From: Alphaproteobacteria bacterium
Lineage (GTDB): Bacteria > Pseudomonadota > Alphaproteobacteria > UBA828
Reading direction: 5' to 3'
DNA: 64,000 nucleotides
Assembly (NCBI GenBank): GCA_965220745.1
Contig: CBDCQT010000010.1
Span: forward strand, 64,001 to 128,000
Positions 28,134 to 54,666 of this stretch are shown in pieces. The notes beneath the pieces are model-generated. The model saw only the letters and a program-made list of their open reading frames with translations. It was not told where the DNA came from and did not search any database. How positions within the stretch are numbered: position 1 is the stretch's first letter; each line of letters opens with the position of its first letter. Position numbers and translations under genes: made by a program.

Positions 28134-28187
28134 CCGGACCATGGTGCGGTGCACGACGCGCCGGGGCCGTGACAGGATCCCGCCATG
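28134..28187 (+). promoter_or_regulatory. Putative Mor/C-type activator-dependent leaderless promoter, copy D (orphan)
   Basis: CCGGACCATGGTGCGG (28134-28149) + N23 + CAGGAT (28173-28178) + N6 + ATG (28185); same spacing as three copies before phage-derived genes. Confidence 0.6.
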
Positions 28188-28230
28188 CGGTGGGCGAGCG
28201 AATGGGTCGTAGCCGGTGGGGTTGCCATAT

Positions 28231-28684
28231 GGATGCGCGGATACCCGGAACGAGTCCGGGCATGTCCGCGCATGACGGGATGGGGCATCGCGTGCGACGG
28301 ATGTTGCGGGGCGCGACACAATGTCCACGCGCGTTGGGTGCGCGATGACGGGAACGTCGGGCGGGCACTTGGGCGACTCTCGGGCGGAAAACGTTGCCGT
28401 GGAATGCCACTCATCCCAGCCGTCCCGCCTAATCCCGGCGCGTCCCGCATGAAATTAAGTTGTCGCATCCCACTTTCGTCACGGGGCGTTCTTTCGGCCC
28501 ACCCGTTCTCCCACATCGTCATGCCCCGACTTGTTCGGGGCATCCACGTGCTCGCCCAACGCATGGCGGGCCCGGCTGAGAAAGATGCCCGGAACGAGTC
28601 CGGGCATGACGGTATGTGGGGGAGCGCGGTTGCTGGAGATGCGCGGATGCCCGGAAAGAGTCCGGGCATGTCCGCGCATGACGG
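28231..28684. repeat. Cluster of alphaproteobacterial-type palindromic (REP/RPE-like) repeats
   Basis: Units GATGCCCGG..CCGGGCATGACG / CGTCATG..GCATCCACG at ~28231-28278, 28517-28550, 28584-28612, 28638-28684. Confidence 0.8.
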
Positions 28685-28714
28685 TTTGGGGGCGTAAGGG
28701 CGTGGCCGGCGCGG

Positions 28715-30709
28715 TTACAGCAGCTCCCTTATCGCCTCCACGATGCGGTCCTGCGAGGGGATGACCTCGAGCTCGAGGCGGTCGTTGTAGGGCATCGGCG
28801 TGTGCGGGGCGCCGAGGCGGGCGACCGGCGCGTCGAGATAGTCGAAGGCCTTGTCCACCACCATGGCCGCCACCTCGGCGCCGAAGCCGCCGCGCACCCA
28901 GGCCTCGTGCACGATGAGGAGGCGGTTGGTCTTGCGCACGCTGGCGAGGATTGTCTCCTCGTCCAGCGGCTGCAGGGTGCGGGGGTCGATCACCTCGACG
29001 CTGATGCCGTCCCGCTCCAGCACCGTGGCGGCGCTCAGCGCGCGCGGCACCATGGCGGACGTCGCCACCACGGTCACGTCCGTGCCCGCGCGCTTGATGT
29101 CGGCCTTGCCGAGGGGGATGGCGTAGAGCTCCTCCGGCACCGGGCCGTTGCCGCCGAGGTAGAGCAGCTTCTGCTCCAGGAAGACCACGGGGTTCTCGTC
29201 GCGGATCGCGGCGACCAGCAGTCCCTTGGCGTCGTAAGGGGTGGACGGCGCCGCCACCACCAGCCCCGGCACGTGGGTGAACCAGGCCTCCAGGCTCTGG
29301 CTGTGCTGGGCCGCGAGCCGGATGCCGCCGCCCTGCGGGCCGCGCACCACCAGCGGCACCGAGGGCTTGCCCCCAAGCATGAAGCGGAACTTGGCCGCCT
29401 GGTTGACCAGCATGTCCATGGTGAGCGCCACGAAGTCGAAGATCTGGATCTCCACCACGGGGCGCATGCCGGCGATGGCGGCGCCGACGCCGCAGCCGAC
29501 GAAGGTCGCCTCGGAGATCGGCGTGTCGCGCACGCGCTCAGGCCCGTAGCGGTCCATCAGCCCCTTGGAGACGCCGAAGATGCCGCCGGTGGCGCCGACA
29601 TCCTCGCCCATGAGGAAGACCCTGTCGTCGCGCAGCATCTCCTGGTCCAGCGCCTCGTTGAGCGCCTCGGGGTAGGAGAGCTCGCGCTCGGTCTCCGGCC
29701 CCGGCTCGGTGTGCGCCGCGTGGGGGGCGTAGACGGCATCGAGCATGACGTGCACCGGGGGCTCCGGGCTCTCGCGGCCGTAGGAGACGGCGGTCTCGAT
29801 CTCATCGTCCACGGCCTGCGTGGTCTCGTCGAACTGCTCGTCGGAGAAGCTGGCTTCGGAGGTCAGGCGCCTCTCCATGCGCGCGATGGGATCGCGATCG
29901 AGCCACGACTCAAGCTCATCCTCCGGCCGCGGGTCGCGCAGGTTGACCCGGAGCGAGTGCTGGCCGTGGCGGTAGGTCATGGCCTCGATCAGCGTCGGTC
30001 CCTCGCCGGCGCGGGCGCGGTCCACCGCCTCGCGCAGCACGAGGTAGACCTCGACGCCGTCGTTGCCGTCCACGGTGATGCCGGGGATCTCGTAGGAGGC
30101 CGCGCGGTTCGAGACCTGGGAGACCGCCGTGGTGTTCCGATAGGAGGTCGACAGCGCGTACTGGTTGTTCTCGCAGACGAAGATCACCGGCAGCTTCCAC
30201 ACCGCCGCCAGGTTGAGGGATTCGTGGAAGACGCCCTGGTTCGACGCACCGTCACCGAAGAAGGCCACGGCGACCCGATCCGTCCCCTGCAGCTTGGCGG
30301 CGAGGCCCGCGCCGGTGGCGAGCGGCATGGCGGCACCCACGATGCCGTTGGCGCCCATGATGTTGAGCTCCATGTCGGCGATGTGCATGGAGCCGCCGAG
30401 GCCCTGGCAGTAGCCGGTCTGGCGGCCCATCAGCTCCGCCATCATGCGGTCGATGCGCGCGCCCTTGGCGATGCAGTGGCCGTGGCCGCGGTGGTAGGAG
30501 GCGATGATGTCGTCATCGCGCAGCGCCGCGCAGACGCCGGCGGCGATGGCCTCCTCGCCCTTGTAGCTGTGGGCCGTGCCCTTGACGACGCCCTCCTGGA
30601 AGAGGTCGGCGGTCTTGTCCTCGAAGGCGCGGATGCGGCGCATGGTGACGTAGAGGTCGCGGAGGGTCTCCGCCTCCACGGTGATATTGCTGGTCGCGCT
30701 CTCGTTCAT
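28715..30709 (-). CDS. Fused E1 alpha/beta TPP-dependent 2-oxoacid dehydrogenase
   Basis: Alpha part 'GGSMHIAD', '[14 protein letters not shown]'; beta part 'DTPISE', 'AAQHSQ' in one frame; start MNESATS. Confidence 0.9.
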
Positions 30710-30923
30710 CGCCCTTCGCCTCCCTGGCGTGCCGCTCTGGCCCCGACGCATTGTTCACGACTGCAGCGCGCCACGCCAGCCCAAGTGTGCCGGCCGTTCA
30801 TGCCCCCTGCTCCCGGAAAGTCTGCCGGAAGGAACGAAATGATTTGACCGGTGCACCGGGCAGTCGAAGGATCGACGCCCGCGACGCCTTGCCGCGCGCG
30901 AGAGGTGCGATGGACCGGATGCC

Positions 30924-32159
30924 GTGATCGCTCAGGCCATACTGCGGAGGCCGCCGGCGTTGATCGCCGTGATGTGCCTCGCCGAGGTGCTCGCGATGAC
31001 CGGCTTCGCGGCCTACTGGTCGCTGCTGCCAGTGCTCCAGGCCGAGTGGCACATGAGCAATGCCCTGGCCGGCTGGCTTTCGGGCGCATTCTTCGGCGGC
31101 TATGTCCTCGTGGTCGCGTTTCTGACCGCGATGACGGACCGGGTCGATGCCCGCTACGTCTTCATCCTGGGTGCGGCGCTGTCTGCCGCCGGCCTGGTCG
31201 GGCTGGCGCTGCTGGCAACGGGATTCTGGTCGGCTCTGCCGTGGCGCGTGATCGCGGGCGCGGGCCTCGCCGGCACCTACATGCCGGGCCTCAAGGTGCT
31301 CACCGACCGCCTGCCGCAAGAACGACAGGCGCGTGCCGTCGCCTTCTACACGTCCTCCTTCAGCATCGGCACGGCCGTGTCCTATTCCCTCGCGGGCGGC
31401 GCGCTGGAGTGGTTCGGCTGGCGCGGCGCCCTGCTGTTCACGGCCGCCGGCCCGGTCCTTGCCGGCATCGCGCTTGCGACGATCGTTGCACCAAAGCAGC
31501 CGGAAGCGGCCACCGAGGAACGCGGCCACGTGCTCGACTTCCGCCCGGTGCTGCGCTCGCGGGAGACCATGGCCTACATCATGGCTTACGCCGGCCACGG
31601 GGCCGAGCTCTTCGCCATGCGCTCCTGGATCGTGCCCTTCCTGGTGTTCTGCCTGGGCAGCGGCAGCGGACGCGAACTCAACGCCACGCTCTTCGCCACG
31701 GCGATCGCCCTCGCCGCGGTGGTGTCGAGCATCGGCGGAGCGGAGCTCGCGTTGCGAATCGGCCGCGTGCGTCTGCTCACGTGGGTGATGCTGGCGACCT
31801 TTGCGATCAGCGTCGCGGTCGGCTTTTCCTCGCCGCTGCCCTTCGCCGCAGTGGTGGTGCTTTGCCTGATTTATTCTGCCGCGATTCAGGCCGATTCTGC
31901 GGCGCTTACCGCCGGTGCCGTCGCGACCTCGCCGGTGGGTCATCGCGGCGCGACGCTGGCGGTGCATTCGACGCTGGGGTTCGGTGGCTCGCTGTTCGCG
32001 CCGGCGCTCGTGGGCGTAGTGCTCGACGTTGCCGCGCCACTGGGCGGCACGACCGCGTGGGGTCTCGCTTTCCTTTCAATGGGATCGATGGCGCTGCTCG
32101 GCTACGTTTTTTTCCTGCTGGTACGCCGACGCCCGGCTCATGGGTCGACCTGGGGATAG
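30924..32159 (+). CDS. MFS transporter
   Basis: About 12 hydrophobic segments, motif A-like 'AMTDRVDAR'. Confidence 0.88.
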   Translation: MIAQAILRRPPALIAVMCLAEVLAMTGFAAYWSLLPVLQAEWHMSNALAGWLSGAFFGGYVLVVAFLTAMTDRVDARYVFILGAALSAAGLVGLALLATGFWSALPWRVIAGAGLAGTYMPGLKVLTDRLPQERQARAVAFYTSSFSIGTAVSYSLAGGALEWFGWRGALLFTAAGPVLAGIALATIVAPKQPEAATEERGHVLDFRPVLRSRETMAYIMAYAGHGAELFAMRSWIVPFLVFCLGSGSGRELNATLFATAIALAAVVSSIGGAELALRIGRVRLLTWVMLATFAISVAVGFSSPLPFAAVVVLCLIYSAAIQADSAALTAGAVATSPVGHRGATLAVHSTLGFGGSLFAPALVGVVLDVAAPLGGTTAWGLAFLSMGSMALLGYVFFLLVRRRPAHGSTWG

Positions 32160-32474
32160 ATCGCGACCAAACGCGCCGCTCCAATCCGAACCAAGATTTC
32201 GCGAAAGCGTGAGGCTCTATGTCGATTTGGACATACCATTTTATCTGTTCTATATGGCTTATTTACATGATAATGGAGTGTTCTGCCGCCGGTATCCCTG
32301 TCCTCGCTGGGCCGGTCGCAGCGTAGTCGCGGCGCCGCGTCCGATCCCGGGCCGGCGGCGGACAAGGCCCCGGTGCCGCTGGCGGCCACTGTTTGCCTCC
32401 TGGGCTCTCGGCGGTCCGGTGGCGCCGGGGCCGGCTTTACTTGCTGGGGACATCCACTGCGCCCGCGACTCCGC

Positions 32475-32861
32475 TCAGGCGCCCCCTCCCAGTAGATGTG
32501 CGTTGATCTGATCGAGCTGCTTGTCGAGCCCGGCGATCATCTTGTCCATGCCGTCGAGGGTCGCGCGGAGCGCCGCGATCTCCCCCTGAACCGCCGTGAC
32601 AGAGCGTCCGAGAGTTGCGAACTCACGGGCGTCGGGAAGGGATTCGAGCGCGGTGGAGAGCTTGACCAGACCGCGCTCGACGGTCTCCATGCGCGCGCCC
32701 AGGGCGCCGACGCCGGTGTCGCGCCTCTCCAGGTCGCTGACGCTCTTGGTGGTAACGGCGCCGGCGGATTCGAGCCGGCGCACGCGCACGAAGAGGCCGA
32801 CGCAGGCGGCGACGATGGCGCCGACCACGCCGCGCGCGACCCACGTCTCGAGATCGCTCAT
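32475..32861 (-). CDS. Mu-like gp25/DUF2730-type membrane-anchored coiled-coil protein
   Basis: N-terminal TM, 'LESLPDAREF...VQGEIAAL...LDQINAHLL' pattern; ATGA-coupled to the holin. Confidence 0.6.
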   Translation of the reverse strand: MSDLETWVARGVVGAIVAACVGLFVRVRRLESAGAVTTKSVSDLERRDTGVGALGARMETVERGLVKLSTALESLPDAREFATLGRSVTAVQGEIAALRATLDGMDKMIAGLDKQLDQINAHLLGGGA

Positions 32862-33388
32862 CGACCGGCCGCCCCGCCCTCGCGCGAACGCCGCTTCTCG
32901 ATCTGACGGGCGCCGAACCACCAGAGCATCGCGGCGGTGAAGAGATAGAGCACGGTCTCGACGATGCGGGGCCGGAGGCTTACGGCCGCGAGATCGGAGG
33001 CGCCGAGCAGGAAGTAGATCGCGCCCACGAGGGCGAAGAGGCTCCAGGTGAGCGCCGGCCGCGTGAGGCCCCGCACCACGTCGACGAGCTGCATGGCCCA
33101 GCCCTCGCCGGGTTTGGACCAGCGCCGGGCGGCTTCGCGGTAGGAAGCCTCCATGGCCTCCCACTCGGCCCGCTCGCGGGTGGCCTGAGCCTCGATGGCG
33201 GCATGGGCGGCCGCACCCTCTGCCTCGGCCTTGGCGAGCTCGATGTCGAGACGGCGCAGGTCCAGCTCCTGGGCGTGCCGCTGGCGCGACTGGAAGAAGT
33301 CGACCACGGCCGACAGCGCCGTGCCGAGCAGCCCGGTTGCGCCGCCGGTGAGCACCGAGACGCCGAAGTTGAAAAGCGTTTCAAGCAT
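32858..33388 (-). CDS. Putative holin (3-TM GTA-holin-like)
   Basis: N-terminal hydrophobic helix, coiled coil, 'VRGLTRPALTW...WWFGAR' motif; coupled to endolysin candidate. Confidence 0.65.
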   Translation of the reverse strand: MLETLFNFGVSVLTGGATGLLGTALSAVVDFFQSRQRHAQELDLRRLDIELAKAEAEGAAAHAAIEAQATRERAEWEAMEASYREAARRWSKPGEGWAMQLVDVVRGLTRPALTWSLFALVGAIYFLLGASDLAAVSLRPRIVETVLYLFTAAMLWWFGARQIEKRRSREGGAAGR

Positions 33389-33854
33389 GGGACTCTCCTA
33401 TGCGCCCTACCGCTTCGCTACTTGAGGGCGGGTTGATCTCCAGTTCGAAGGGTTGGTCCGCGGCCCAGTCCATGAGGTGGCGGAAGGCCGTGCGCGAGGC
33501 GAGCACCGCCACCTGCTGGCGCCCCTTCACGCTCAACCGCCCCCGGCGGAGACCGGGGAGCAGGCAGCCCTGGGTGTGGGTATGCCAGCCGCGCTCGACG
33601 TCGCCGCCGAGATTGCCGGCGTGGAAGAGGATGTAGCTGCGGCCCGGTACCTGAGTCACCAGCAGGCAGCGCCGGTGGCGCGGCGAAAGGTGCGGCACCA
33701 CCTCGTAGAGCCCGGCCGGGATGCAGGAGCGGTTGCGCCGGTTGCCGCGCCAGGGCGGTTCCATGATCCAGGTGGGCGAGAGGCCGGGGCCGCTCAGGAC
33801 CCCGAGTGTGCCCTGGTCGCTTTCGTGCCGCCGTGTGAGGGTCGCCCGTTGCAT
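33381..33854 (-). CDS. DUF5675-type phage protein, putative endolysin (peptidase)
   Basis: 'GTLGVL..MEPPW..N....SCIPAGLY...VPGRSYILFHAGN......TQGCLLPG'; start reassigned to ATG at 33854. Confidence 0.75.
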   Translation of the reverse strand: MQRATLTRRHESDQGTLGVLSGPGLSPTWIMEPPWRGNRRNRSCIPAGLYEVVPHLSPRHRRCLLVTQVPGRSYILFHAGNLGGDVERGWHTHTQGCLLPGLRRGRLSVKGRQQVAVLASRTAFRHLMDWAADQPFELEINPPSSSEAVGRIGESHA

Positions 33855-33905
33855 GGGGCGATCATGGCGGGGTGCGCCCCGCCCGTGCACCGCACCATGG
33901 TCCGG
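33852..33905 (-). promoter_or_regulatory. Putative Mor/C-type leaderless late promoter, copy A (lysis cassette)
   Basis: Minus strand: CCGGACCATGGTGCGG (33905-33890) + N23 + CATGAT + N6 + ATG (33854). Confidence 0.75.
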
Positions 33906-33937
33906 GTTCTACCGACCGCGTGCGCGTCGCCTTGCGG

Positions 33938-34480
33938 TCAGTCTACCAACCACTTCTTGCGCCAGAACTCGATCGCGTTGAGCGCCATGGTCGGGCCGAT
34001 AAGGTCGGGTGAGGCGCCGAGCGCCATGCGGCGCGGCGGGGGCGTGTCCGCGCCTTCCCAGGGTAACGGGCCCTCCCAGACGATCTTGTTCTCGATCGCG
34101 TAGAGCGCACAGTCGGGCCGCGCGGCGGGGTAAGCCTTCGCAACAGCCTCGCGGCACTGCTTGAGCGCCCGGTGCTCGTATTGGACATCCCTGATCGGCC
34201 CGGCCCAGATGTGGTCGAGGAGATGGCAGCCGCCTGTCGCGCAATAGACGTACCAGCCGCCCCGCCCGTTGCGGTCGAGCGCGAGCACGGCGTAGCCGCC
34301 GGGCCGCGCATGGCGCAGGTAGTCGCCCCACCACGCCGTGAACCAGGCGGGCGCACCGGCATGCAGCGCATCCGCGGAGGCTGCGGTGGCGCGAATCTTG
34401 TGGCCCTCGACGTGCGTGATCGGCGTGCAGGCGGCGAGCGCGACGGCCGCCAGAACGCCGATCAGAGCTGCGCGGCGCAT
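33938..34480 (-). CDS. Lipoprotein of unknown function, coupled to the repressor gene
   Basis: MRRAALIGVLAAVALAA|C lipobox; ATG overlaps repressor stop (TGATG). Confidence 0.7.
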   Translation of the reverse strand: MRRAALIGVLAAVALAACTPITHVEGHKIRATAASADALHAGAPAWFTAWWGDYLRHARPGGYAVLALDRNGRGGWYVYCATGGCHLLDHIWAGPIRDVQYEHRALKQCREAVAKAYPAARPDCALYAIENKIVWEGPLPWEGADTPPPRRMALGASPDLIGPTMALNAIEFWRKKWLVD

Positions 34481-35382
34481 CACTCGAAGGTGCGAGAGGC
34501 CCAGCGCACCTCGCCGATCACCTCCGCCTCCCGCGGCCACGGCACCGGCTGCCAGGACGGGTGATCGCTCGCGAGGAACCATTGCCGGCCGCGCCGCTCC
34601 AGCCGCTTCACGACCAGGCCCTCGCCGGTGGTGACCACGAAGATGCGCCCGGAACGGCGGCGGGTGCGGTCGCGGTCCACCAGGATCTTGGAGCCGGCCG
34701 GCAGCGTGGGCTCCATCGACTCGCCCCGCACCGAAATCACCACGCAGCGCGTCGGGTCGATGCCTTGGCCATCGAGCCAGTCACGGCGGAACCAGACCGG
34801 ACCCTTGACCGGTGCATCGTCGAGATTGACCGTGCCGCCGCCTGCCGCCGCTGCGACCTCGCGCGTCCCCACCGAGCGCGCGCCGGGCGGCACGCCGTTC
34901 TCGTTCGCTGCAGCGACCGGCCGGGCGTCGGAGTCGGTGAAGCCCGCCACAGGGGGCGCGCCCAGCTCCTCCGGGATCGGGTCGCCGCCAGCGTCTGCGA
35001 CGAGCCCCACCAGCGCCCGGACCGGCCCCTCCAGGCTGAATATCGGCACCGCCGGCGGGGCTGCCGGCAATGCACCGCCCCACTCCGTACCCGTCAATTC
35101 CGACAGTGCTCCCGCTCCCCCCAGGCCGACCTCGTCGTCCTCATCGTTGGCGCGCGCATCGGCAGGCGGACCGATCGAAAGTGTGAGCCCGAGCGCAGCA
35201 CAGATCTCGGCCGCGCGGTCCACCGAGGGCGCCTGTTGGCGGGTCGGGTCCAGAATTCCCCGCAGCGTCCAGGGCCGGAGCCCGCGGGCCGCCTCGAAGC
35301 GCCGCGCGCCCACGCCGGCGGCCGCCAGCGCCTCGCGCACGGCACGGCGGATCTGCTCGCTCGGTCGAGTCGATTCGTTCAT
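34480..35382 (-). CDS. CI-like repressor with HTH and S24 autopeptidase domain
   Basis: N-terminal HTH ('PSVDRAAEICAALG'), A-G site 'AAAAGGG', catalytic 'VRGESMEP' Ser and 'LVVKRL' Lys; TATATT-N6-ATG suggests a leaderless start at 35382. Confidence 0.88.
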   Translation of the reverse strand: MNESTRPSEQIRRAVREALAAAGVGARRFEAARGLRPWTLRGILDPTRQQAPSVDRAAEICAALGLTLSIGPPADARANDEDDEVGLGGAGALSELTGTEWGGALPAAPPAVPIFSLEGPVRALVGLVADAGGDPIPEELGAPPVAGFTDSDARPVAAANENGVPPGARSVGTREVAAAAGGGTVNLDDAPVKGPVWFRRDWLDGQGIDPTRCVVISVRGESMEPTLPAGSKILVDRDRTRRRSGRIFVVTTGEGLVVKRLERRGRQWFLASDHPSWQPVPWPREAEVIGEVRWASRTFE

Positions 35383-35456
35383 GTGCACAATATAGCACAA
35401 ACGGTTGTGCATAAAAGTGCTTGATATCGTCATGTGTGATCGTGCATATATGTCTT
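35383..35456. promoter_or_regulatory. Divergent cI/cro promoter-operator region
   Basis: AT-rich gap with dyad GCACAA-ACGG-TTGTGC (35395-35410), further TGCAC/GTGCA half-sites, and TTGATA -35-like at 35421. Confidence 0.7.
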
Positions 35457-35708
35457 ATGGTGCACAGTGACCAACTGCTCGTTACCCTCATCCACGCCTT
35501 TGCGGACGCCCGCAGCCTCTCCGTCTCCTACGCGTCGCGCCTCTTGACCGGCAGCGGCGACACGGTCGACCGCGTCACCGCCGGCGCGAGCATCACCGCG
35601 CGCCGTGCCGAGACCATCCTCCGCCGCGCCTCGCAGAACTGGCCCGCCGATCGCGCCTGGCCGGCGGACATTCCCCGCCCCGCGCCCGCGCCGAAAACCA
35701 ATAAGTAA
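35457..35708 (+). CDS. Cro-like small DNA-binding protein
   Basis: 83 aa, divergent from repressor, C-terminal 'NWPADRAWPADIPRP' motif typical of alphaproteobacterial prophage Cro-like proteins. Confidence 0.7.
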   Translation: MVHSDQLLVTLIHAFADARSLSVSYASRLLTGSGDTVDRVTAGASITARRAETILRRASQNWPADRAWPADIPRPAPAPKTNK

Positions 35709-35730
35709 TGGATTTGAAAGGGAGAACCCA

Positions 35731-36276
35731 ATGGCCGGAACCCATGCGCCACCAGTGACCTCTATGGAGGACATCGTCGCCTTCGCCCGGAGCTTCGCCG
35801 CTGCGCGGGCGACGACCGAGGCGCTGGCCGAAGACATCAAGGCGTTGCAACGCAAGGCCCTGGCTGGCCGGCTTCGTGCGCTGCGTAACCGCATTGCCGA
35901 GCAGTCGGCATCCGAAGACGCGCTGCGCACCGCAATCCTGGCCCGGCCGGACCTCTTCGTCAGCCCGCGCACGATTACGGTGGACGGCATCAGGCTCGGG
36001 CTCCGCAAGCAGCCCGGCGCCATTTCGCTGGACGACGAGGCGCTGACCATCGAGCGGCTGCGCGCGCGCTTTCCAGACCAAGCCGAGGCGCTGATCCGGG
36101 TCAAGGAGACGCTCGACCGCAGCGCGCTCCGCAAGCTCCCTGCGGGCGAGCTCGCGCAGATCGGCGTCACCATCGCGAAGGCGTCCGACGAAGTGACCAT
36201 TGTCGCCGCGCAAGGCGATCTCGACCGCATCGTCGCCGCCTTGCTGGACGACCACGCACCGGCGGAGGCGGCATGA
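35731..36276 (+). CDS. Mu Gam-like host-nuclease inhibitor
   Basis: Coiled coil then 'PDLFVSPRTITVDGIRLGLRKQPG...LIRVKETLDRSAL...LAQIGV'; SD GGAG upstream. Confidence 0.75.
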   Translation: MAGTHAPPVTSMEDIVAFARSFAAARATTEALAEDIKALQRKALAGRLRALRNRIAEQSASEDALRTAILARPDLFVSPRTITVDGIRLGLRKQPGAISLDDEALTIERLRARFPDQAEALIRVKETLDRSALRKLPAGELAQIGVTIAKASDEVTIVAAQGDLDRIVAALLDDHAPAEAA

Positions 36277-36902
36277 GGAGCGGACGCCAGCGCACCATGC
36301 GGCGGGAGGAGGCGCGGCCGGCGGCAGTGCCGGGCGCCCGCGCCCGCGCCGAGCGGCTGTGGGACGAAACGATCGTGCAGCCCTACGCAGCCGAGAGCGA
36401 TGCGAGCGAATCAAACGGCGCTCCCCTCCCTTCCGGGCCGGCGACGCGCAAGCTGCGGGCGCTCTGGCACAGCGCGTACCACCTGGGCCTGATCCACGAC
36501 CGCTCGGACGACGCGCTCGGTGCTTGGCTCCGTCGCCTCGCGCACCTCGATGGGAACGCCTGCGCCGAACCGGCCCGCCTCGACCGCCCCATCCAGGCAC
36601 TCAAGGCCTGGCTCGCGCGCGGCGCCGGGGTGGACTGGCGGCCGCACGTCTCCCTCGGGCAGGACGGGCGGGTGCGGGAGACGCGCCGCCCGCGGGCGCG
36701 CGTTCTGGAGGCGCAGTGGCGCCTGCTGCATCGCCAGGGGCGGGTGCGGATCGGAAGTGACGCGGCTCTCGGCGCCTACGCCGCCCGCCTTGTCGGCCTG
36801 GGCCGCACTGATTCGCATCTCGCTCTCAGCAACGCTCAGACCGATGCCCTGATCCGCCACTTCGGCAAGTGCATCCGCGCGGCGAGCGAACGCCATGACT
36901 GA
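36273..36902 (+). CDS. Mu gp16/GemA-like (DUF1018) protein, atypical N-terminus
   Basis: 'RKLRALWHSAYHLGLIHDRSDDALGAWLRR...IQALKAWLAR' GemA C-terminal pattern. Confidence 0.7.
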   Translation: MRSGRQRTMRREEARPAAVPGARARAERLWDETIVQPYAAESDASESNGAPLPSGPATRKLRALWHSAYHLGLIHDRSDDALGAWLRRLAHLDGNACAEPARLDRPIQALKAWLARGAGVDWRPHVSLGQDGRVRETRRPRARVLEAQWRLLHRQGRVRIGSDAALGAYAARLVGLGRTDSHLALSNAQTDALIRHFGKCIRAASERHD

Positions 36903-37242
36903 TGCCGCGCCTCTCCCCGGCGTGCTGGAGGAGATTGCGGATATCGCGGGCAGGCCGACGGCGATCGCGATGGCGCTGGCCTGGGGCGGGCGGGAGGTTC
37001 ACATCCCCAAACCGCGCTATCTGGCGCGACACCCCGACCACCCCCTCGCCCGCCTGCTGGAGGCCGAGGGGACCGCGTTCCAGGTCGCCGACTATCTCGG
37101 CGGTTCCGGCGTCTACCTGCCGCGGGCGCGCCGTGCCTGCGCCGTCCACCTCGCCGCCGCCGGCGCGACCGCCGTCGAGATCGCGGCGCGCCTCTCCCTC
37201 TCCCCCAGCGCGGCGCGGCGCTACATCAGGGGCGTGTCCTGA
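36895..37242 (+). CDS. Mor/C-family transcription activator
   Basis: 'LPGVLEEIADIAG...AWGGREVHIP...HPLARLL...GGSGVYLP' plus C-terminal HTH 'AVEIAARLSLSPSAARRY'; follows gemA as in Mu-like phages. Confidence 0.72.
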   Translation: MTDAAPLPGVLEEIADIAGRPTAIAMALAWGGREVHIPKPRYLARHPDHPLARLLEAEGTAFQVADYLGGSGVYLPRARRACAVHLAAAGATAVEIAARLSLSPSAARRYIRGVS

Positions 37243-37456
37243 GGCAGCCGCCGCGCGCATGAGTGCTATGCTTGAGAGGTAGCCCGTCCGGCGTTGCACA
37301 TTAGTCGCGTCATAACCACATCACGGGTGGCGGCGCAGTGCCCACATTCCCGCGTGGGAGCGGGCCGTGCCGCCACAGAGTCAACAAGGGCCACGCACCA
37401 GCGAGAGGTCCATCGAGCGGCAGCCACCGCAGCCCGGTCAGAAAAGGAACGTCGTC

Positions 37457-37951
37457 ATGTCCCAGACATTGCACCCCACGAAGATCGACATTGCCGACAA
37501 CACGCGTGCCGCGATGGTCGCGCTGCTCAACGCCCGCCTGGCTGACGCGGTGGACCTCGCCACCCAGATGAAGCAGGCCCATTGGAACGTGAAGGGCCCC
37601 TCCTTCATCGCGCTGCACGAGCTCTTCGACGCGATCCACGTGGCGGTTCAGGGCCATGTCGACAACCTCGCGGAGCGCATTACGGTGCTGGGCGGCACCG
37701 CGCGGGGAACTGCGGCCGTGGCCGCGGCGGCCTCAGGGCTCCCCGCCTATCCGCTGGAGATCACGGCGGGCACCGACCACGTGGAGGCCGTGAGCGTGGC
37801 GCTGGCCACCTTCGGCAAGGGCATCCGCGCCGCCATCGCCGAAGCGGGCGATGCCGGTGATGCCGACACCGAGGACCTGTTCGTCGAGGTCTCGCGCGAC
37901 ATCGACAAGAACCTCTGGCTGGTCGAGGCCCACGCCCAGGCGCAACGCTAG
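37457..37951 (+). CDS. dps: DNA protection during starvation protein Dps
   Basis: 'KQAHWNVKGPSFIALHELFD', 'DNLAERI', 'DKNLWLVEAH'. Confidence 0.95.
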   Translation: MSQTLHPTKIDIADNTRAAMVALLNARLADAVDLATQMKQAHWNVKGPSFIALHELFDAIHVAVQGHVDNLAERITVLGGTARGTAAVAAAASGLPAYPLEITAGTDHVEAVSVALATFGKGIRAAIAEAGDAGDADTEDLFVEVSRDIDKNLWLVEAHAQAQR

Positions 37952-37986
37952 AGCACGACCTGATGGGATCGCATCCGCTCGTTGCG

Positions 37987-38002
37987 CGGCACGCTTCTTG
38001 CA
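37987..38002 (+). promoter_or_regulatory. Possible sigma-54 -24/-12 element
   Basis: CGGCACG-CTTC-TTGCA matches the GG-N10-GC consensus; intergenic upstream of the XRE regulator. Confidence 0.3.
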
Positions 38003-38020
38003 TGCAGCGTGACCCGAGAA

Positions 38021-38069: not shown

Positions 38070-38328
38070 GTAAGCCGGCGCCGCCTGGAATCCCGCCTGT
38101 CTCACTTATCTCACTTATCCCACTGGTCTCACCGAATCCCGGCGAATCCCGCCTGAACTTTTGGCGTGCCCGTCTCACGCGGGAGAGCGCGATGCCGCGT
38201 GGGACGCGACTCTCTTTCCTCGCTGACGCTGCCGGTAGCGATCCCGCTGCCAGCGAAGAGCGGTTGACTTGGCGCCGCCCGATGCGTCAGGATTTTACCC
38301 AGAGTGAAATCAGGGGGCGCCTCGGGAG

Positions 38329-38949: not shown

Positions 38950-38997
38950 GACTAGTGACCCGTTCGAGAAGTTTCTATTTGTCCACGCCGCCCCTCA

Positions 38998-46543: not shown

Positions 46544-46562
46544 GCGAGACGGCGGCAGCACG

Positions 46563-48230: not shown

Positions 48231-48265
48231 TTCGAGACAGTCGATTCGGACAACGGGAGGACCGC

Positions 48266-49075: not shown

Positions 49076-49195
49076 CGGATGGATGGCGTAACAATCGCGT
49101 GTGATACGCCGATAAGACGACCCTTCCCAGGTGCAGGAGGCGTTTGGAGGCGCCATACTTGACCCGCTGAGGCAATCGAGCGGCATGATCCGGTC

Positions 49196-50290: not shown

Positions 50291-50329
50291 AGCGGTCAGA
50301 CGACCGAGAGGTACCTCGCGGACCCGTCG

Positions 50330-50515
50330 TCAGGCGGCCTCTCCCTCCTGCACGGGATCGAAGTCGGCCTTGGGCGCCCGGCAATCGGGGCAGCACCAGT
50401 CATCCGGGAGGTCCGCGAACGGCGTGTCCGGCGGCGTCTCGCGCTGCGCTTCGCCCTTGGCGGGATCGTAGACGTAGCCGCACCAGCGGCACCGATAGCG
50501 CGTCATGGGAGACAT
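50330..50515 (-). CDS. Rubredoxin
   Basis: 'YRCRWCGYVYDP...TPFADLPDDWCCPDC..PKADF', two CxxC motifs; start could be 50506. Confidence 0.92.
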   Translation of the reverse strand: MSPMTRYRCRWCGYVYDPAKGEAQRETPPDTPFADLPDDWCCPDCRAPKADFDPVQEGEAA

Positions 50516-50585
50516 CGCCGCGGCATGGCCGTGGGAGAAACGCGCGGCCGGCCCGTCTCGGACCGGCCGCAAGTCGTCAACTTGA

Positions 50586-51755: not shown

Positions 51756-51861
51756 CGGTCATCTCCCGGTATTCGTTGATGCTTGCCGCCATCGTCCCAT
51801 AGGAGCGGTGCTGCGTTCAACGCATAGGCAGCGCGACGGGACTCGCGCCCGATCGCGTGCC

Positions 51862-51915
51862 CCGCACCTTGGTGCGATGGTCGTTGGCGCCGGGTGCCGT
51901 CATGGTAAGGGCATG
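51862..51915 (+). promoter_or_regulatory. Putative Mor/C-type leaderless late promoter, copy C (terminase)
   Basis: CCGCACCTTGGTGCGA (51862-51877) + N23 + CATGGT (51901-51906) + N6 + ATG (51913). Confidence 0.72.
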
Positions 51916-53289
51916 GTTGGCCCTGCTTCTAGCGAATCGCTCCACCTCTCCCTCCTCCCCTATCAGGCCCGCTGGGTGTCGGACCCGGCAGGTTTCAAGG
52001 TGATCGAAAAGGCGCGGCGCATCGGCATCTCCTGGGCCGAGGCCTACGACGCGGTAATGCACGCGGGCTCGAAATGGGGCGGCAACGTCTATTACCAGGC
52101 CTACAACCTGGAGATGACCCGGGGCTTCATCGAGGACTGCGCCGGCTGGGCAGAGAGGTTGCAGAGCAGGGCCGGTGCGCTCGGCGAGACCTTGATGGTG
52201 GAGGATGGGCGTGCCGTGCGGGCCTTCCGCATCGCCTTCGGCTCAGGCAACGAAATCCTCGCCATGACTTCGGCGCCGCGCGCCTTCCGCTCCAAGGGCC
52301 GGCCCGGCGATCTTGCCATCGTCGACGAAGCGGCCTTCGTCGACGACCTCGGCGAAGTGCTGAAGGCGGCGCTCGCCTTCCGCGTCTGGGGCGGGCGGGC
52401 GCACGTCATCAGCACCCACAACGGCGAGGCCAACCCCTTCGCGACGCTCTGCCGCGAGATCGACGAGGGCGCGCGGCCGGGCACGCTGCACCGCACCACG
52501 CTCAAGGAGGCGCTGGCGCAGGGTCTCTTTCGCCGCATCGTCGAGGGGCAGGGCCGCCCCTGGTCGGCCGCCGCCGAGGCCGAATGGGAGGGCGCGCTCA
52601 GGGCCGAATACGGCAGCCATTCGGGCGAAGAACTCGACTGCATCCCCGCCGCCGGTGGCGGGGCCTGGCTCGCGTGGGAGGCGATCCGCGCCTGCGAAGA
52701 CCCCACCGCAGGCGATCCCGCCGCCTTCGCCGGCGGCGGCGCCACCGTCGGCGTGGACGTGGCGCGGCGGCGTGACCTCTGGGTCGCAGCGGTACTCGAG
52801 CAGGTGGGCGACGTGCTCTGGCTGCGCGAGCTGGCGGTCCGCCAGGGCATCCCCTTCAGCCAGCAGCGGGCGATCGTGGGCGACCTTGCGGCGCGCTATC
52901 GGCCGGTGCGCATCGCCGTGGACCAGACCGGCATGGGAGAGGCCGTGGTGGAGCAGCTGCAGGAAGACCTGGGCCGGACCGCGGTCGAGGGTGTGCTGAT
53001 GTCCGGGCCGCGCAGGCTCGATGTGGCAACGGCGCTGCGCGAGGCGGTGGAGGATCGCCGCCTCCGCATCCCACCCGACGCGGAGCTTAGGCGCGATCTC
53101 CATGCCGTCCGCGCCGAGGCCGGGCCGACCGGGGCGCCGCGGCTGCTTGCCGAACGCTCGGGCACCGACGGCCACGCCGACCGATTCTGGGCTCTGGCGC
53201 TGGCCTGCACCGCCGCCCGCGACGGCAGTGCGACCATTGGGGGTGCCAGCGCCGGCCCGCGCGCTGCTTCGCTTGCGGGGTTCTACTGA
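51913..53289 (+). CDS. Mu gp28-like terminase large subunit
   Basis: 'LLPYQARW...IEKARRIGISWAEA', Walker B 'IVDEAAF', 'ISTHNG', nuclease 'GVDVAR..D', 'DQTGMGE', 'HADRFWALALA'. Confidence 0.9.
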   Translation: MVGPASSESLHLSLLPYQARWVSDPAGFKVIEKARRIGISWAEAYDAVMHAGSKWGGNVYYQAYNLEMTRGFIEDCAGWAERLQSRAGALGETLMVEDGRAVRAFRIAFGSGNEILAMTSAPRAFRSKGRPGDLAIVDEAAFVDDLGEVLKAALAFRVWGGRAHVISTHNGEANPFATLCREIDEGARPGTLHRTTLKEALAQGLFRRIVEGQGRPWSAAAEAEWEGALRAEYGSHSGEELDCIPAAGGGAWLAWEAIRACEDPTAGDPAAFAGGGATVGVDVARRRDLWVAAVLEQVGDVLWLRELAVRQGIPFSQQRAIVGDLAARYRPVRIAVDQTGMGEAVVEQLQEDLGRTAVEGVLMSGPRRLDVATALREAVEDRRLRIPPDAELRRDLHAVRAEAGPTGAPRLLAERSGTDGHADRFWALALACTAARDGSATIGGASAGPRAASLAGFY

Positions 53290-53323
53290 CCGGCAGAAGG
53301 CGACCGAGGCGGGCGAAGAGGCC

Positions 53324-53377
53324 CCGCACCATGGTCCGGTGCACAGGCCGGGCCGGAGTCCCGATGATCGGGGCATG
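53324..53377 (+). promoter_or_regulatory. Putative Mor/C-type leaderless late promoter, copy B (portal)
   Basis: CCGCACCATGGTCCGG (53324-53339) + N23 + GATGAT (53363-53368) + N6 + ATG (53375). Confidence 0.75.
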
Positions 53378-53427
53378 ATGATTGCCCGATCCTCCGCGTC
53401 TCTACCGGCCAACCGGAGCCTCGTCTG

Positions 53428-54666
53428 ATGGCGGCGGCCCTCGCGACCCGGCTCCGCCGGCTGCTCTCTCCCTCCCGTGCTGGCACGCCGGCAGGGCCGC
53501 CCTCTGGCGAGGTCGCCGCAGCCAGCATCGCTGGCCGCCTCCAGCCCTATATCGGTGAGCTGCCGCTCAACCCGCGCCAGCCCTCGCGCTATGCCGAACG
53601 CTACCGCGACGAGGGCGCGGCACTCCGCATCTACCGCGACATCCTGCGGGACGAGCGCTGCCAGGCTGCGCTCGACCAGCGCCTCGATGCCGCCATCGCG
53701 CGGCCCTGGACGGTCGAGCCCGGCGGCGACGGCCCGGACGATCGTGCCGCGGCCGACGACCTCGCCCGCCAGCTCGATGGCGTCGGCTTCGATGCCGTCA
53801 GCCGCCAGCTCCTGCACGGGGTCTGGTACGGCTACGCCATCGCCGAGGCGCTCTGGGCCCGCGCGGGCGACCGCGTCGTGCTCGACCGCCTCGTGGTGCG
53901 CGCGCCCGACCGCTTCCGCTGGTCGGCGGAGGGCCAGCCCCTGCTCCGCACCGACGCCCACCCCCTGGGCGAGCCGCTGCCGGAAGCAAAATTCGTGATC
54001 CTTCGCCGCCCCGGCGAGCACGGCGACCTGCCCCACGGGCCGGGCCTCGCGCGCTGGTGCTTCTGGCCGGTCTGGCTCAAGCGCCACGGGCTCAAGTTCT
54101 GGTCCGTCGCGCTCGAAAAGTTCGGCGCTCCCGGCGTCAAGGGCACCTATCCCAGGAACGCGAGCGCCGAGCAGAAGGCCGACCTGCTCGACCTGGTGCA
54201 GTCCTTCGCCACCAGCCTCGGCGTCATCCTGCCCGAGGGCCAGGAGATCGAGATCGTCGAGAGCGCGCGCCGCGCCGGCGGCGACTTCCAGGCCTTCGTC
54301 GCCTATCTCGACCGTGCCATCGCGACCACGATCCTCGGGCAGTCCGCCACCACCGACATGGGGCCCTGGCGCGGCACCGCCGAAGTGCAGCGCGACGTGC
54401 GCGACGAGACCGTCGCCGCCGACTGCCGCCTGCTCGACGACGCGCTGGGCGGCACCGTCGCCCGCTGGCTCACTGCCTGGAACTTTCCGGGTGCGGCGAC
54501 GCCCCGCATCCGCCGCGACGCATCACCGCCGGAGGACCTCGACGCCCGCGCCCGCCGCGAGGCCGTCATCGCCAGCACCAGCGGCCTGCGTCCCACCCGA
54601 TCCCACATCGAACGCACCTATGGCGGGAAGTGGGAGGCGGCGCCGCCTGCATCTGGGGCGGCGTAA
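53428..54666 (+). CDS. Mu gp29-like portal protein (DUF935)
   Basis: 'YRDILRDE..QAALDQR', 'HGVWYGYAIAE', 'GLARWCFWPVWLKR..LKFW...EKFGAP', 'ILGQSAT'. Confidence 0.88.
   Translation: MAAALATRLRRLLSPSRAGTPAGPPSGEVAAASIAGRLQPYIGELPLNPRQPSRYAERYRDEGAALRIYRDILRDERCQAALDQRLDAAIARPWTVEPGGDGPDDRAAADDLARQLDGVGFDAVSRQLLHGVWYGYAIAEALWARAGDRVVLDRLVVRAPDRFRWSAEGQPLLRTDAHPLGEPLPEAKFVILRRPGEHGDLPHGPGLARWCFWPVWLKRHGLKFWSVALEKFGAPGVKGTYPRNASAEQKADLLDLVQSFATSLGVILPEGQEIEIVESARRAGGDFQAFVAYLDRAIATTILGQSATTDMGPWRGTAEVQRDVRDETVAADCRLLDDALGGTVARWLTAWNFPGAATPRIRRDASPPEDLDARARREAVIASTSGLRPTRSHIERTYGGKWEAAPPASGAA

Follow-up and report, generated by a model that had tools for sequence, protein, structure and literature searches.

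The genes of the window analysed here, a stretch of 64,000 nucleotides, read as parts of a scattered, Mu-derived and domesticated regulon that is most likely gene transfer agent (GTA)-like, and it is carried by the majority of species in one uncultured genus of Alphaproteobacteria. The scattered Mu-type blocks are a strong candidate for a new kind of GTA. In the reading we favour, to which we assign a probability of about 0.6, an ancient prophage of the Mu family has lost its transposase genes (A and B) together with Mu F, is vertically inherited, has been kept intact by selection, is co-regulated and would produce GTA-like particles. Directly observed are which genes are present and how they are laid out, their conservation, the purifying selection on them, the geometry of the promoters and the absence of a transposase. 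The initial annotation had proposed a domesticated, distributed Mu-derived regulon, and gene content, conservation and module geometry lend support to that proposal.

The window belongs to a metagenome-type assembly with an estimated contamination of 5.18% (G000). Profile matches for both blocks and their neighbours confirm the two intact Mu-like blocks split by host genes that had been described at the outset: block 1 lies, together with dps, at 32.4-37.9 kb, and the genes for the large terminase (TerL) and the portal lie at 51.9-54.7 kb (Table 1). The genes between and around the blocks are ordinary host genes, encoding Dps, an HTH-cupin protein, a peptide ABC transporter, hydantoinase A/B, a racemase, a Bmp-type binding protein, a rubredoxin, a MetE-like protein and pyruvate carboxylase. 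The G+C content of the blocks (0.67-0.75) is similar to that of the neighbouring genes, in line with the host-like composition noted before, and of the 30 further window ORFs that were scanned, none matched a transposase, integrase, capsid or tail family, as the initial annotation had stated. The contiguity of the layout holds up, since the block junctions are spanned by contigs from two studies and since independent genomes, among which are single-contig ones, repeat the layout.

Table 1. Features of the window, with family matches and dN/dS ranges; the last three rows give gene groups for comparison.
Feature	Position	Strand	Match or detail	dN/dS
Non-coding module	28134-28520	+	palindrome 28134-28149, TGCAC, -10-like hexamer, ATG 28185, heptamer iterons 28413-28448, AT-rich core	
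DUF2730-like, last gene of lysis-position cassette	32475-32906	-	E 2.9e-4, below Pfam cut-off; phrog_736	0.03-0.28
Membrane protein	32858-33388	-	phrog_6637, E 1.2e-21	0-0.27
DUF5675 gene, first in cassette	33381-33854	-	E 6.7e-25; start is module ATG (33854)	0.23-0.33
Palindrome of lysis-position cassette module	33890-33905	-	upstream of DUF5675 gene in G000, G011, G014, G018, G003	
Lipoprotein-like gene	33938-34582	-	downstream of repressor; conserved at 58-80% aa	0.33-0.50
S24 repressor	34480-35433	-	LexA-type self-cleavage domain; Peptidase_S24 E 1.7e-16; phrog_4 transcriptional repressor	0.14-0.33
Small early gene, ner/cro position	35421-35708	+	phrog_7669, E 1.7e-17	0.16-0.33
Gam, DNA-end binding	about 35731-36276	+	Phage_Mu_Gam E 8.4e-7; phrog_491	0.24-0.37
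GemA	36273-36902	+	E 2.8e-17	0.25-0.46
Mor/C-family activator	36895-37242	+	Mor E 2.8e-6; phrog_836 'late transcriptional activator' E 7.9e-14	0.05-0.21
dps (ferritin-like)	37367-37951	+	domain match; directly after mor	
Seven heptamers RTCYCRS	38090-38152	+	10-bp spacing, no palindrome upstream; after dps	
Variant palindrome of TerL module	51862-51877	+	exact palindrome, TGGTC follows instead of TGCAC; ATG 35 nt on	
TerL, large terminase	51913-53289	+	Terminase_6C E 1.8e-20; start is module ATG (51913)	0.14-0.28
Palindrome of portal module	53324-53339	+	kept upstream of portal in G000, G009, G014, G003	
Mu-type portal	53428-54666	+	Portal_Mu E 7.3e-89	0.09-0.25
Major capsid				0.04-0.13
Tail genes				0.13-0.51
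Host neighbours				0.01-0.26

Within block 1, the ner/cro-position gene is divergent from the repressor gene, and dps is the next gene after mor in all nine species examined, including the compact layouts of G003, G018 and G002. The phrog_6637 membrane protein is inferred from its position to be holin-like, the DUF2730-like protein retains 80-99% amino acid identity in five species, and the lipoprotein-like protein found no family match in domain and PHROG profile searches. A tblastn search detected no paralogous second Mor-type activator in the genome; the count of one activator relies on tblastn, because a genome search with the Pfam Mor profile failed to recover the mor of the window itself at E <= 0.001.

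Particle genes extend beyond the window. A module-headed cluster of head and siphovirus-tail genes of about 15 kb, which is complete, begins 54 kb to the left of the window (C10:9964 to 1, continuing on C13:1-5043). It encodes a protease/scaffold (phrog_976, E 1.4e-46), a cement protein, the major head protein (phrog_1005, E 2e-70), a Gp36 adaptor, a virion morphogenesis protein, a tail terminator, a major tail protein and a tape measure, along with DUF1833, NlpC/P60-like, GpJ-like and collar fibre proteins. In addition, nine solo cassettes with Mu gp27 small-terminase genes are scattered over the genome. The genome-wide motif scan suggested initially found the module ahead of the head-tail cluster and of all nine gp27 genes.

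Searches of the G000 genome found no MuA, MuB, Mu F or gpT-family protein and no HK97 capsid elsewhere. The only Mu-transpos_C matches, three in all, were rejected as MuA, being IS21-like IstA/IstB copies. In the compact arrangement of G003 there is no space for A and B, because the ner-position gene directly adjoins gam. Mu F is assumed to be dispensable, as in related phages. A complete cognate prophage of which the blocks might be fragments, a possibility raised beforehand, was not detected in G000 by tblastn: the 11 Mu-like block proteins and two unassigned ORFs were without paralogue, with the exception of weak matches (31-37% identity) for the S24 repressor and the ner-position protein. 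G002, G013, G006 and G010 carry Mu-like prophages that are related at 42-81% identity; that of G002 (C1:178-212 kb) is a real Mu-like prophage with MuA, Mu F and a tail sheath, and it shares 64-81% identity with the G000 element in its lysis, TerL, portal and capsid proteins.

Among 20 other genomes of the genus, orthologues are present in 13-16 species. The portal is conserved near full length in 15 (84-96% amino acid identity), Mor in 14 (76-99%) and the major capsid in 16 (92-100%), while TerL is unbroken in 13 (78-98%), split by an insertion in one more (G008) and ended by a contig edge in another. The split layout with the same intervening host genes recurs in G004, G005, G008, G009 and G014. 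G011 has the host segment, TerL and the portal at this site and block 1 at a distance of 1.66 Mb on the same contig, with the block 1 neighbours of the window (E1dh and MFS on the left, dps after mor); G003, G018 and G002 show block arrangements that differ from those of the G000 clade. The head-tail cluster is syntenic in eight species and partly so in two. Pairwise NG86 estimates against G000, made in up to nine species for 33 genes, 21 of them phage-like, gave dN/dS values of about 0-0.5, the non-synonymous rate being 2-25 times below the synonymous rate in all 33; weaker constraint (0.24-0.50) is seen for the protease/scaffold, gemA, gam and the lipoprotein-like gene. The synonymous divergence amounts to 0.1-0.8 per site and is comparable for phage-like and host genes, in most species the compared genes are free of frame-breaking changes, and concatenated host and phage-like trees have three of four internal splits in common. 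The expectation of conserved synteny and of dN/dS far below 1 at host-like dS is thus borne out.

In the modules ahead of the lysis cassette, TerL and the portal, a 16-bp palindrome is separated by 23 nt from a -10-like hexamer, and an ATG comes 6 nt after the hexamer. If this ATG is counted as +1, the centre of the palindrome falls at -43.5 and the hexamer spans -12 to -7, while a -35 hexamer is missing. This geometry resembles that of Mu Mor/C promoters, where a 16-bp element bound by a Mor dimer has its centre at -43.5 (PMC4390567) and late promoters have -10 hexamers and lack -35 hexamers (PMC2582627). Four exact palindromes occur in the window, each ending exactly 35 nt before an ATG; with up to two mismatches on both strands there are 10 matches against 1.25 expected, a number reached in none of 100 shuffles. 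The portal module differs in that its ATG (53375) opens a frame of 17 codons only, the portal ATG following 53 nt downstream in a different frame, and the frame from ATG 28185 is non-coding-like (GC3 0.68). TerL is preceded by a palindrome in G018 and G014 as well, and modules at orthologous positions are conserved across species with a variable spacer between conserved blocks.

From this arrangement we infer Mor binding, transcription start, induction, particle formation and DNA transfer. The S24 repressor would keep the early operon closed; once it is cleaved or inactivated, the ner-position gene, gam, gemA, mor and probably dps would be transcribed. A Mor dimer would then bind the palindrome of each module and recruit RNA polymerase, and transcripts would begin at or near the module ATG, which predicts leaderless messages for the lysis cassette and TerL. 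In this way, separate loci could simultaneously produce heads, tails, portal, terminase and lysis functions. Any particle would have to carry host DNA, as with a GTA, because nothing able to transpose or replicate the genes is present and because they are scattered, spanning about 100 kb in G000 and megabases in other species. Contigs from RNA libraries match gam, TerL and portal, but they stem from relatives at 91-97% identity and are no proof of transcription.

The initial annotation had regarded the promoter element as one that the fragments share, and as an argument against decay since each fragment owns a copy. The element does stand ahead of the lysis cassette, TerL and the portal and is conserved at orthologous sites; it is not private to them, with about 45 dispersed copies, so that repeat spread could partly explain the pattern. 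Palindrome plus TGCAC occurs 43 times in G000 with at most one mismatch, and 46 oriented modules have an ATG at +35/+36, one of them being the reverse reading of the TerL site. Since 22 of the 46 are non-coding units and 23 have a convergently oriented gene downstream, many copies do not serve as promoters for protein genes. It is conceivable, if unlikely, that the modules are a MITE-like repeat derived from a phage late promoter and a small-terminase cassette, the TerL and portal copies being tolerated by chance and the regulon only apparent; these two modules could have arrived by such spread. The intergenic units (185-378 nt) end in heptamer arrays with 10-bp spacing and have both ends in common with the gp27 cassettes, like the deletion derivatives of an autonomous element, and 36 of the 46 copies lie just downstream of a same-strand gene, as at insertion-tolerant sites. 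Copy number varies by species (8-63 modules in the 18 genomes with the genes, 1-15 gp27 genes in the 17 other element-carrying genomes of the genus), and the array after dps is found in G000 and G009 and is missing at the same site in G004, G008, G014 and G002. The G011 orthologue of the unit at 28134-28520 has its 5' end interrupted by different inserted DNA. Furthermore, the G002 prophage has a related palindrome, CGGGACCATGGTCCCG, at two places only, one immediately behind mor and the other in the interval that separates the protease gene from the early genes, and none ahead of terL or portal. Against mobility as a repeat, no transposase partner or terminal inverted repeats of the units were identified, and single-strand structure in the modules is not in excess (z-scores -1.09 to +0.13). 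The lysis, portal, TerL and head modules occupy orthologous sites at which spacing is kept while spacers vary, as expected of constrained promoters, the module ATG is the own start codon of TerL and of the DUF5675 gene, a coincidence that would be rare by random insertion, and the gp27 paralogues have open frames with a nearly invariant core. Modules and gp27 genes are both absent from G012, G016 and G017, which are without the element and also have no pyc orthologue; these three probably form a separate deep clade, so that the co-occurrence of modules and genes counts as one event rather than three. A reversed-pattern control gave no copies in any genome.

Very improbable is a decaying Mu-like prophage, whose rearranged leftovers would be without function and conserved merely because too little time has elapsed. 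The loss of A, B and F, the differing rearrangements, a partial portal with a stop in G020, a portal fragment in G013, a partial mor and no detected capsid in G018, the split TerL of G008, and insertions in G005 and within the tail cluster of G009 would all fit such decay. However, neutral decay over the synonymous distances observed would have scattered stops and frameshifts throughout, whereas frames in most species, the capsid sequence and also the promoter modules are conserved. Domestication for another purpose, such as a stress-induced device for killing or lysis, a helper exploited by satellites, or a decoy or defence against related Mu-type phages, appears rather improbable, too. For the defence variant, in which repressor immunity would combine with terminase interference through the many gp27 copies, speak the intact repressor with the lipoprotein gene in immunity position and the related prophages as a target, and a simple GTA leaves many small-terminase paralogues unexplained. 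Yet capsid, portal, TerL, head-completion proteins and a full fibre-bearing tail are all under purifying selection, a set that matches the needs of DNA-filled particles and goes beyond those of immunity or of a tailocin; a DNA-free killing particle has no use for a terminase and a portal.

The GTA of Rhodobacter capsulatus (RcGTA) is described in PMC5026251 as having a multi-locus 'genome'. Judging by the genes, the element resembles it in having phage-derived head, tail, terminase and lysis genes fixed in the chromosome over several loci, in clade-wide vertical inheritance under purifying selection, and in that not all of its own genes can be packaged. It differs in its Mu-type origin (portal, gp27/TerL, Gp36, virion morphogenesis protein, Gam, GemA, Mor) with no HK97-family capsid found, and in its nine small-terminase paralogues and about 45 promoter modules, which have no counterpart in RcGTA. 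RcGTA is under GafA/CtrA-type control, whereas a phage-type control by an S24 repressor and a Mor-family activator acting at the 16-bp palindrome is predicted here.

With Mu and Mu-like prophages the element shares the order of the early operon (ner-position gene, gam, gemA, mor), which ends in a small Mor/C-family activator gene as in the Mu system of middle and late promoters, the order of the lysis genes, gp27, TerL and portal thereafter, and, with the Mu-like prophages, the late operator palindrome (core GGACCATGGTCC). Unlike them it lacks MuA, MuB and Mu F, is non-contiguous, has additional modules before TerL and portal, and sits at syntenic chromosomal sites in many species instead of variable transposition sites; its tail is of siphovirus type in contrast to the sheath-bearing tail of the G002 prophage. 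The units share short intergenic length, dozens of copies and full and deleted forms with common ends with MITE/REP-like repeats, from which the lack of terminal inverted repeats, of excess hairpin stability, of an Rfam match and of an identified transposase partner, and a promoter-like 5' end of phage origin, set them apart. Phage satellites borrow terminase small subunits, and a solo terS behind a helper-type late promoter is similar, but the units here are chromosomal, numerous, mostly without a gene and not adjoined by integrase or replication genes. Some phage pac sites consist of iterated short repeats and lie in or next to terS genes; the arrays of three to seven heptamers, one helical turn apart and flanking an AT-rich core at the 3' end of the small-terminase gene, may resemble them in general design. 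Finally, Mu has two activators (Mor and C) and five such promoter sites, compared with one activator gene and about 45 sites per genome here, two of which have predicted leaderless transcripts that distinguish them from the Mu promoters.

The Mu-like genes of the window lie in two blocks split by host genes, and family searches upheld both this layout and the contents that the initial annotation had assigned to it (see table). The genes of block 1 lie on both strands around a divergent control region and comprise regulatory genes and a three-gene cassette, a putative lysis cassette judging by its position after mor in related layouts; block 2 consists of the genes for the large terminase (TerL) and the portal. 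A scan of the window's ORFs found ordinary metabolism and transport genes between and around the blocks, and G+C content is even across the phage-like and host genes; beyond the family searches, genes were called with a crude GC3-based ORF filter. Elsewhere in the window, the region 5500-10172 opens with a tRNA-Leu gene (5500-5588, TAA anticodon), behind which a stretch of lower G+C (58-61%) encodes another hydantoinase B/A pair, a paralogue of the one between the blocks.

A genome-wide scan for the promoter motif, proposed in the initial annotation, placed copies ahead of the cluster of head protease, capsid and tail genes and ahead of all nine gp27 genes of the genome (G000), which we take to encode the small terminase subunit as in Mu. 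The copy 54 kb to the left of the window heads a complete morphogenesis cluster that leaves contig C10 at its start and resumes at the start of contig C13. A gene for a 556-aa DUF1833 tail protein is split over the starts of C10 (reverse strand) and C13, and since this one gene spans both contig ends, C10:1 and C13:1 adjoin in the real genome. The capsid protein, which also matches Phage_cap_E weakly, was located only by following the motif; family searches of the genome returned no Mu gpT-family capsid, no HK97 capsid and no Mu F, and capsid family searches alone would have given the false reading that there are no head genes. Of the Mu-type morphogenesis set, G000 has gp27, TerL, Portal_Mu, Gp36 and the protease, with Mu F absent and a capsid outside the gpT family. 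As is expected of a gene transfer agent (GTA), the host chromosome encodes phage-derived structural, packaging and lysis-position genes.

Genes and modules of the Mu-like element, with identity and occurrence among 20 other genomes of the genus (one genome per species) and pairwise dN/dS against G000
Feature	Location (window unless a contig is named)	Direction	Match or remark	Other genus genomes	dN/dS
Exact palindrome CCGSACCWTGGTSCGR	28134, 33890, 51862, 53324
Module copy at head cluster	C10:9964	(-)
S24-domain repressor	34480-35433	leftward	family match		0.14-0.33
Lipoprotein-like gene	33938-34582	leftward	no assigned family		0.33-0.50
phrog_7669 gene	ner/cro position	rightward	first of the early genes, before Gam
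Gam	after ner-position gene	rightward			0.24-0.37
GemA	after Gam	rightward			0.25-0.46
Mor-family activator	after GemA, 36895-37242	rightward		76-99% in 14/20	0.05-0.21
dps	37367-37951		ferritin-like
DUF5675, membrane protein (phrog_6637), weak DUF2730 match	33854 down to 32475	minus	three-gene cassette at lysis position		0-0.33
TerL	51913-53289		block 2	78-98%, unbroken in 13/20; split by ~5 kb in G008; cut by contig end in G001	0.14-0.28
Mu-type portal	53428-54666		Portal_Mu, E 7.3e-89	84-96%, near full length in 15/20; partial with a stop in G020; fragment in G013	0.09-0.25
Head maturation protease/scaffold	C10 cluster, first gene		phrog_976, E 1.4e-46		0.28-0.44
Cement protein	C10 cluster, after protease/scaffold				0.11-0.17
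Major head (capsid) protein	C10 cluster		phrog_1005, E 2e-70	92-100% in 16/20	0.04-0.13
Gene without assigned function, then Mu Gp36 adaptor	C10 cluster
Virion-morphogenesis protein, tail terminator, major tail protein	C10 cluster
Short tape-measure protein and two further virion proteins	C10 cluster
DUF1833 protein, NlpC/P60-like protein, GpJ-like host-specificity protein, collar-domain fibre	C13 start
Tail genes					0.13-0.51
gp27 genes				1-15 per genome in 17 other carrier genomes
Host neighbours					0.01-0.26

The absence of MuA and MuB, noted earlier for the window, extends to all of G000 (marker-gene completeness 99.96%, contamination 5.18%). Three proteins of 532-578 aa with rve and Mu-transpos_C_2 domains are the only matches to Mu-transpos_C in G000, one copy being slightly different from the other two and the copy on contig C1 having an IstB-like neighbour; the three MuA candidates were set aside as elements that we assume to be of the IS21 family. 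These IS21-like copies (IstA plus an IstB-like gene) lie at C10:140337-142073 and C10:184225-185961, 12 and 56 kb to the right of the window, and at C1:303-2674. In both the window and the more divergent species G003, the ner-position gene abuts gam at the place where a Mu-like prophage has MuA and MuB. A tblastn search of G000 with 13 window queries (11 Mu-like block proteins and two unassigned ORFs) detected no further copy of any Mu-like gene and hence no cognate prophage elsewhere in the genome, for which the initial annotation had advised a check; there were only weak matches, at 34-37% for the S24 repressor, 32% for the ner-position protein and 37% for one of the unassigned ORFs. A Pfam Mor search of G000 missed the window's own mor and is uninformative on further activators. 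Rather than a single contiguous prophage, the element, by which we mean all Mu-like loci together, comprises at least three separate loci and nine small-terminase (terS) cassettes. Its loci lie 86-104 kb apart in G000, and in G004 the capsid gene is at 3.33 Mb and TerL and portal at 5.00 Mb. Judged from such locus distances, the genes would be too dispersed for one headful, and the element appears to have no replication or transposition module.

A sister prophage is available for comparison in G002 (C1:178000-212000; L100-L103), an apparently complete Mu-like myovirus whose genes include those for a GcrA-domain protein, a tail sheath and Mu F. Its genome follows the same overall plan as the element, with heads and tails leftward and early genes, lysis, gp27, TerL, portal and F rightward, whereas an 846-aa MuA (rve and Mu-transpos_C) stands where the ner-position gene of the element abuts gam. 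Its lysis, TerL, portal and capsid proteins share 64-81% identity with those of the element, and it is the closest bona fide phage relative of the element. Since the prophage carries a related palindrome, CGGGACCATGGTCCCG, at two places only, one just behind mor and the other separating the protease gene from the early genes, the palindrome is the putative late operator of this phage lineage, and the ancestral state would have been one with two late promoters. The modules ahead of TerL and portal would then be additions that accompanied the break-up of the late operon.

In the window, the palindrome has 10 matches on both strands at up to two mismatches, where 1.25 are expected. At all four exact sites an ATG lies exactly 35 nt 3' of the palindrome, and a hexamer (CATGAT, GATGAT, CATGGT or CAGGAT) ends 6 nt ahead of this ATG. 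Were the A of the module ATG the transcription start, the hexamer would fall at -12 to -7 and the palindrome at -51 to -36, with its centre at -43.5. In the Mu middle promoter, a 16-bp element centred at -43.5 is bound by a Mor dimer (PMC4390567), and Mu late promoters have -10 hexamers but no -35 hexamers (PMC2582627). Provided that the start is the module ATG, the predicted geometry fits a Mor/C-dependent promoter exactly. The initial annotation had given the lysis cassette, TerL and portal one identically spaced promoter element each; all three are preceded by it with the same internal spacing, but the motif is not confined to them. The module ATG is the start codon of the DUF5675 gene and of TerL, the portal start codon lies 53 nt 3' of it, and the module at 28134 has no coding sequence after it. 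The idea that the ATG at +35 always opens a gene was rejected, as most frames are short and have a GC3 of 0.55-0.77 against 0.85-0.95 for real genes. On contig C12 (343899-345110, minus strand; L010), a 403-aa beta-lactamase-family (serine hydrolase) gene with a coding-like GC3 of 0.88 starts exactly at a module ATG, the only non-phage protein gene seen to do so.

Three of the 20 other genus genomes (G012, G016 and G017, each 100% complete) have none of portal, TerL, Mor, capsid and gp27, and the pyc orthologue is missing from them as well. Module copies number 0 in these three and 8-63 in the carriers, and a reversed-pattern control gave 0 everywhere. The association of modules with phage genes is clean but represents a single event, because the three genomes probably make up a single deep branch. 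A search of 40 genomes beyond the genus recovered the portal in two, at 24-31% identity. Among the carriers, a ~5 kb insertion splits terL in G008 (C3:301399-307947), a 4.5 kb insertion separates the morphogenesis gene from the tail-terminator gene on C8 of G009 (L092 5780-10275), and one of 5.4 kb follows dps in G005 (L038 3045-8506).

The window layout, including the host genes that separate the blocks, recurs in five genomes (G004, G005, G008, G009 and G014). In G011, TerL and portal remain with the host segment, but block 1 with dps is 1.66 Mb off on the same contig. Throughout the G000 clade the head-tail cluster is apart from the blocks, by as much as 1.7 Mb in G004, whose chromosome is a single contig. 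G003 has a compact layout, in which a module leads leftward into the protease-capsid-tail cluster, followed by the lipoprotein-like gene and repressor, the early operon to mor, dps, another module, the lysis cassette, a gp27 gene and TerL; its portal is on a separate contig with its own module. The order in G018 is mor, dps, module, lysis cassette, module and TerL, and in G002 TerL adjoins the lipoprotein-like gene. The dps gene stands directly 3' of mor in all nine species examined, even where all other neighbours differ, and behaves like a member of the element; the G002 prophage has no dps at that place.

The synteny and selection comparisons called for at the outset gave this shared layout in relatives, together with dN/dS of about 0-0.5 and host-like dS; the dN/dS values are simple pairwise NG86 estimates against G000 in up to nine species, made on orthologues defined as the best tblastn match within fetched loci, and the strong GC3 bias may distort dS. 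In each species, the dS of the phage-like genes keeps in step with host dS. Trees of concatenated proteins from seven species (eight host and eleven phage-like proteins) have three of four internal splits in common, the difference being the placement of G005 and G009; branches in the phage-like tree exceed those in the host tree roughly three- to fourfold in length. Vertical inheritance in the clade with purifying selection, as expected of a GTA, is what these genes appear to record.

Contiguity, a further concern of the initial annotation, is borne out by assembled contigs and by other genomes in which the layout recurs. DNA run X2, which is possibly the window's own sample and not independent support, has contigs that match the window without differences and bridge the junctions mor-dps, MetE-like-TerL and TerL-portal; the MetE-like-TerL junction is also spanned, with 10 differences, by a contig of run X6 of another study. 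Misassembly is countered more strongly by the recurrence (the window layout on the single-contig chromosome of G004, the compact loci of G003 and G018) than by the X2 contigs. Contigs of the RNA-library run X1, at 91-97% identity, cover gam, TerL, portal and host genes and do not show transcription; all three runs were available as contigs, which hold no information on transcript starts, strands or levels, and the 10% word share of X1 supports no habitat or strain inference.

Across G000, the palindrome followed by TGCAC occurs in 43 copies at up to one mismatch, and 46 oriented copies have an ATG at +35 or +36, one of them being the reverse reading of the TerL site. Members of the module family begin abruptly at the palindrome and are conserved over ~55 nt as far as the ATG, behind which three classes are found: phage modules (DUF5675 and TerL as coding starts, portal and the head-cluster copy), small-terminase cassettes and non-coding units. 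All nine Phage_Mu_Gp27 genes lie within 150 nt downstream of a module, six of them being paralogues at 82-90% identity with a nearly invariant core. The 22 non-coding units, of 185-378 nt each, consist of the module, a variable stretch and heptamer arrays (RTCCCRS) 10 bp apart around an AT-rich core. Because such arrays also end the gp27 cassettes, the non-coding units look like gp27 cassettes minus the gene. The compact G003 and G018 loci have no iteron arrays beside terS or terL and the G002 prophage has none inside it, and the arrays are therefore a feature of the dispersed cassettes rather than of the ancestral layout; the single array of the G002 stretch is ~14 kb past the last prophage gene, next to a dispersed palindrome module. 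In the window, arrays stand at 28413-28448 and, behind dps, at 38090-38152. The array behind dps is present in G000 and G009 and absent in G004, G008, G014 and G002, so that arrays are gained and lost between species, and at least one non-coding unit is positionally conserved between G000 and G011.

Several readings of the non-coding units can be weighed against these features. That the module is the promoter of the next protein gene was rejected for them, since 23 of the 46 copies are followed by a convergent gene and 23 by a co-directional one, the same-strand genes being ordinary housekeeping genes. A described RNA family is ruled out by Rfam searches, in which the window at gathering thresholds gave tRNA-Leu alone and eight units gave one chance-level match at E up to 1. 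A mobile repeat of the MITE or REP type would have terminal inverted repeats or a stable hairpin; the units have a sharp 5' boundary at the palindrome and a 3' end unrelated to it. A hairpin, REP or IS200/IS605-type mechanism was dropped, as single-stranded DNA folds of the four modules in the window are no stabler than those of shuffles (z-scores -1.09 to +0.13). The dispersed units may instead be selfish derivatives of the terS cassette, or they may be functional sites.

As to the element as a whole, the evidence agrees with domestication of a Mu-type phage, the modules of which would be co-regulated by one Mor-family activator under the S24 repressor. The element is predicted to be unable to move or package itself, an architecture like that of a GTA. 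Known GTAs are few and arose independently, and we know of none from a transposable Mu-type phage. Titles and abstracts of the literature on GTAs and Mu-like phages reveal no evident Mu-derived GTA, and at a similar depth no such system is evident in that on small terminases, pac sites and domesticated GTAs, nor such a case in that on domesticated Mu-like prophages under purifying selection; a passage search of PMC7947584 gave no relevant mention. A bolder proposal, drawn by analogy and which we hold to be unlikely, at roughly one chance in seven, is that the ~45 modules are more than promoters and that, among them, the nine gp27 cassettes and at least 22 non-coding units make up a dispersed set of Mor-switched packaging start sites, where gp27 paralogues would bind the heptamer arrays and pass DNA to the single TerL for headful packaging from dozens of chromosomal positions. 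If true, a GTA would have gained genome-wide coverage via scattered pac sites and terS genes and not via lost sequence specificity. A multiplied small terminase with ~45 modules per genome might tie regulation to the choice of packaged DNA. On the main reading, the loci are a sequence record of the taming of a transposable phage through transposase loss, late-operon break-up and an activator-dependent promoter copy per fragment, with intermediate layouts kept in related species from the compact G003 to the scattered G000. The hosts are uncultured, and a built-in gene-exchange device would bear on gene sharing in such populations.

Directly upstream of the palindrome at 28134, a low-G+C island (47% G+C, 26-28 kb) carries a gene for a 604-aa ATPase (25960-27774, minus strand). 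This ATPase is most similar to the defence protein AriA (E 9.8e-30), followed by GajA and Old. At the same junction in G011, other AT-rich DNA truncates the palindrome of the orthologous unit, and because the two genomes differ in the DNA found there, the junction may be an insertion hotspot. A hairpin repeat of the type ATGCCCGGACTTGATCCGGGCAT occurs in dozens of copies genome-wide, for instance at 28540-28700 of the window, and a ~100-nt repeat (…GGCAAACGCCTCGTTGGCTGCCGG…), likewise in dozens of copies, flanks gp27 cassettes and many modules.
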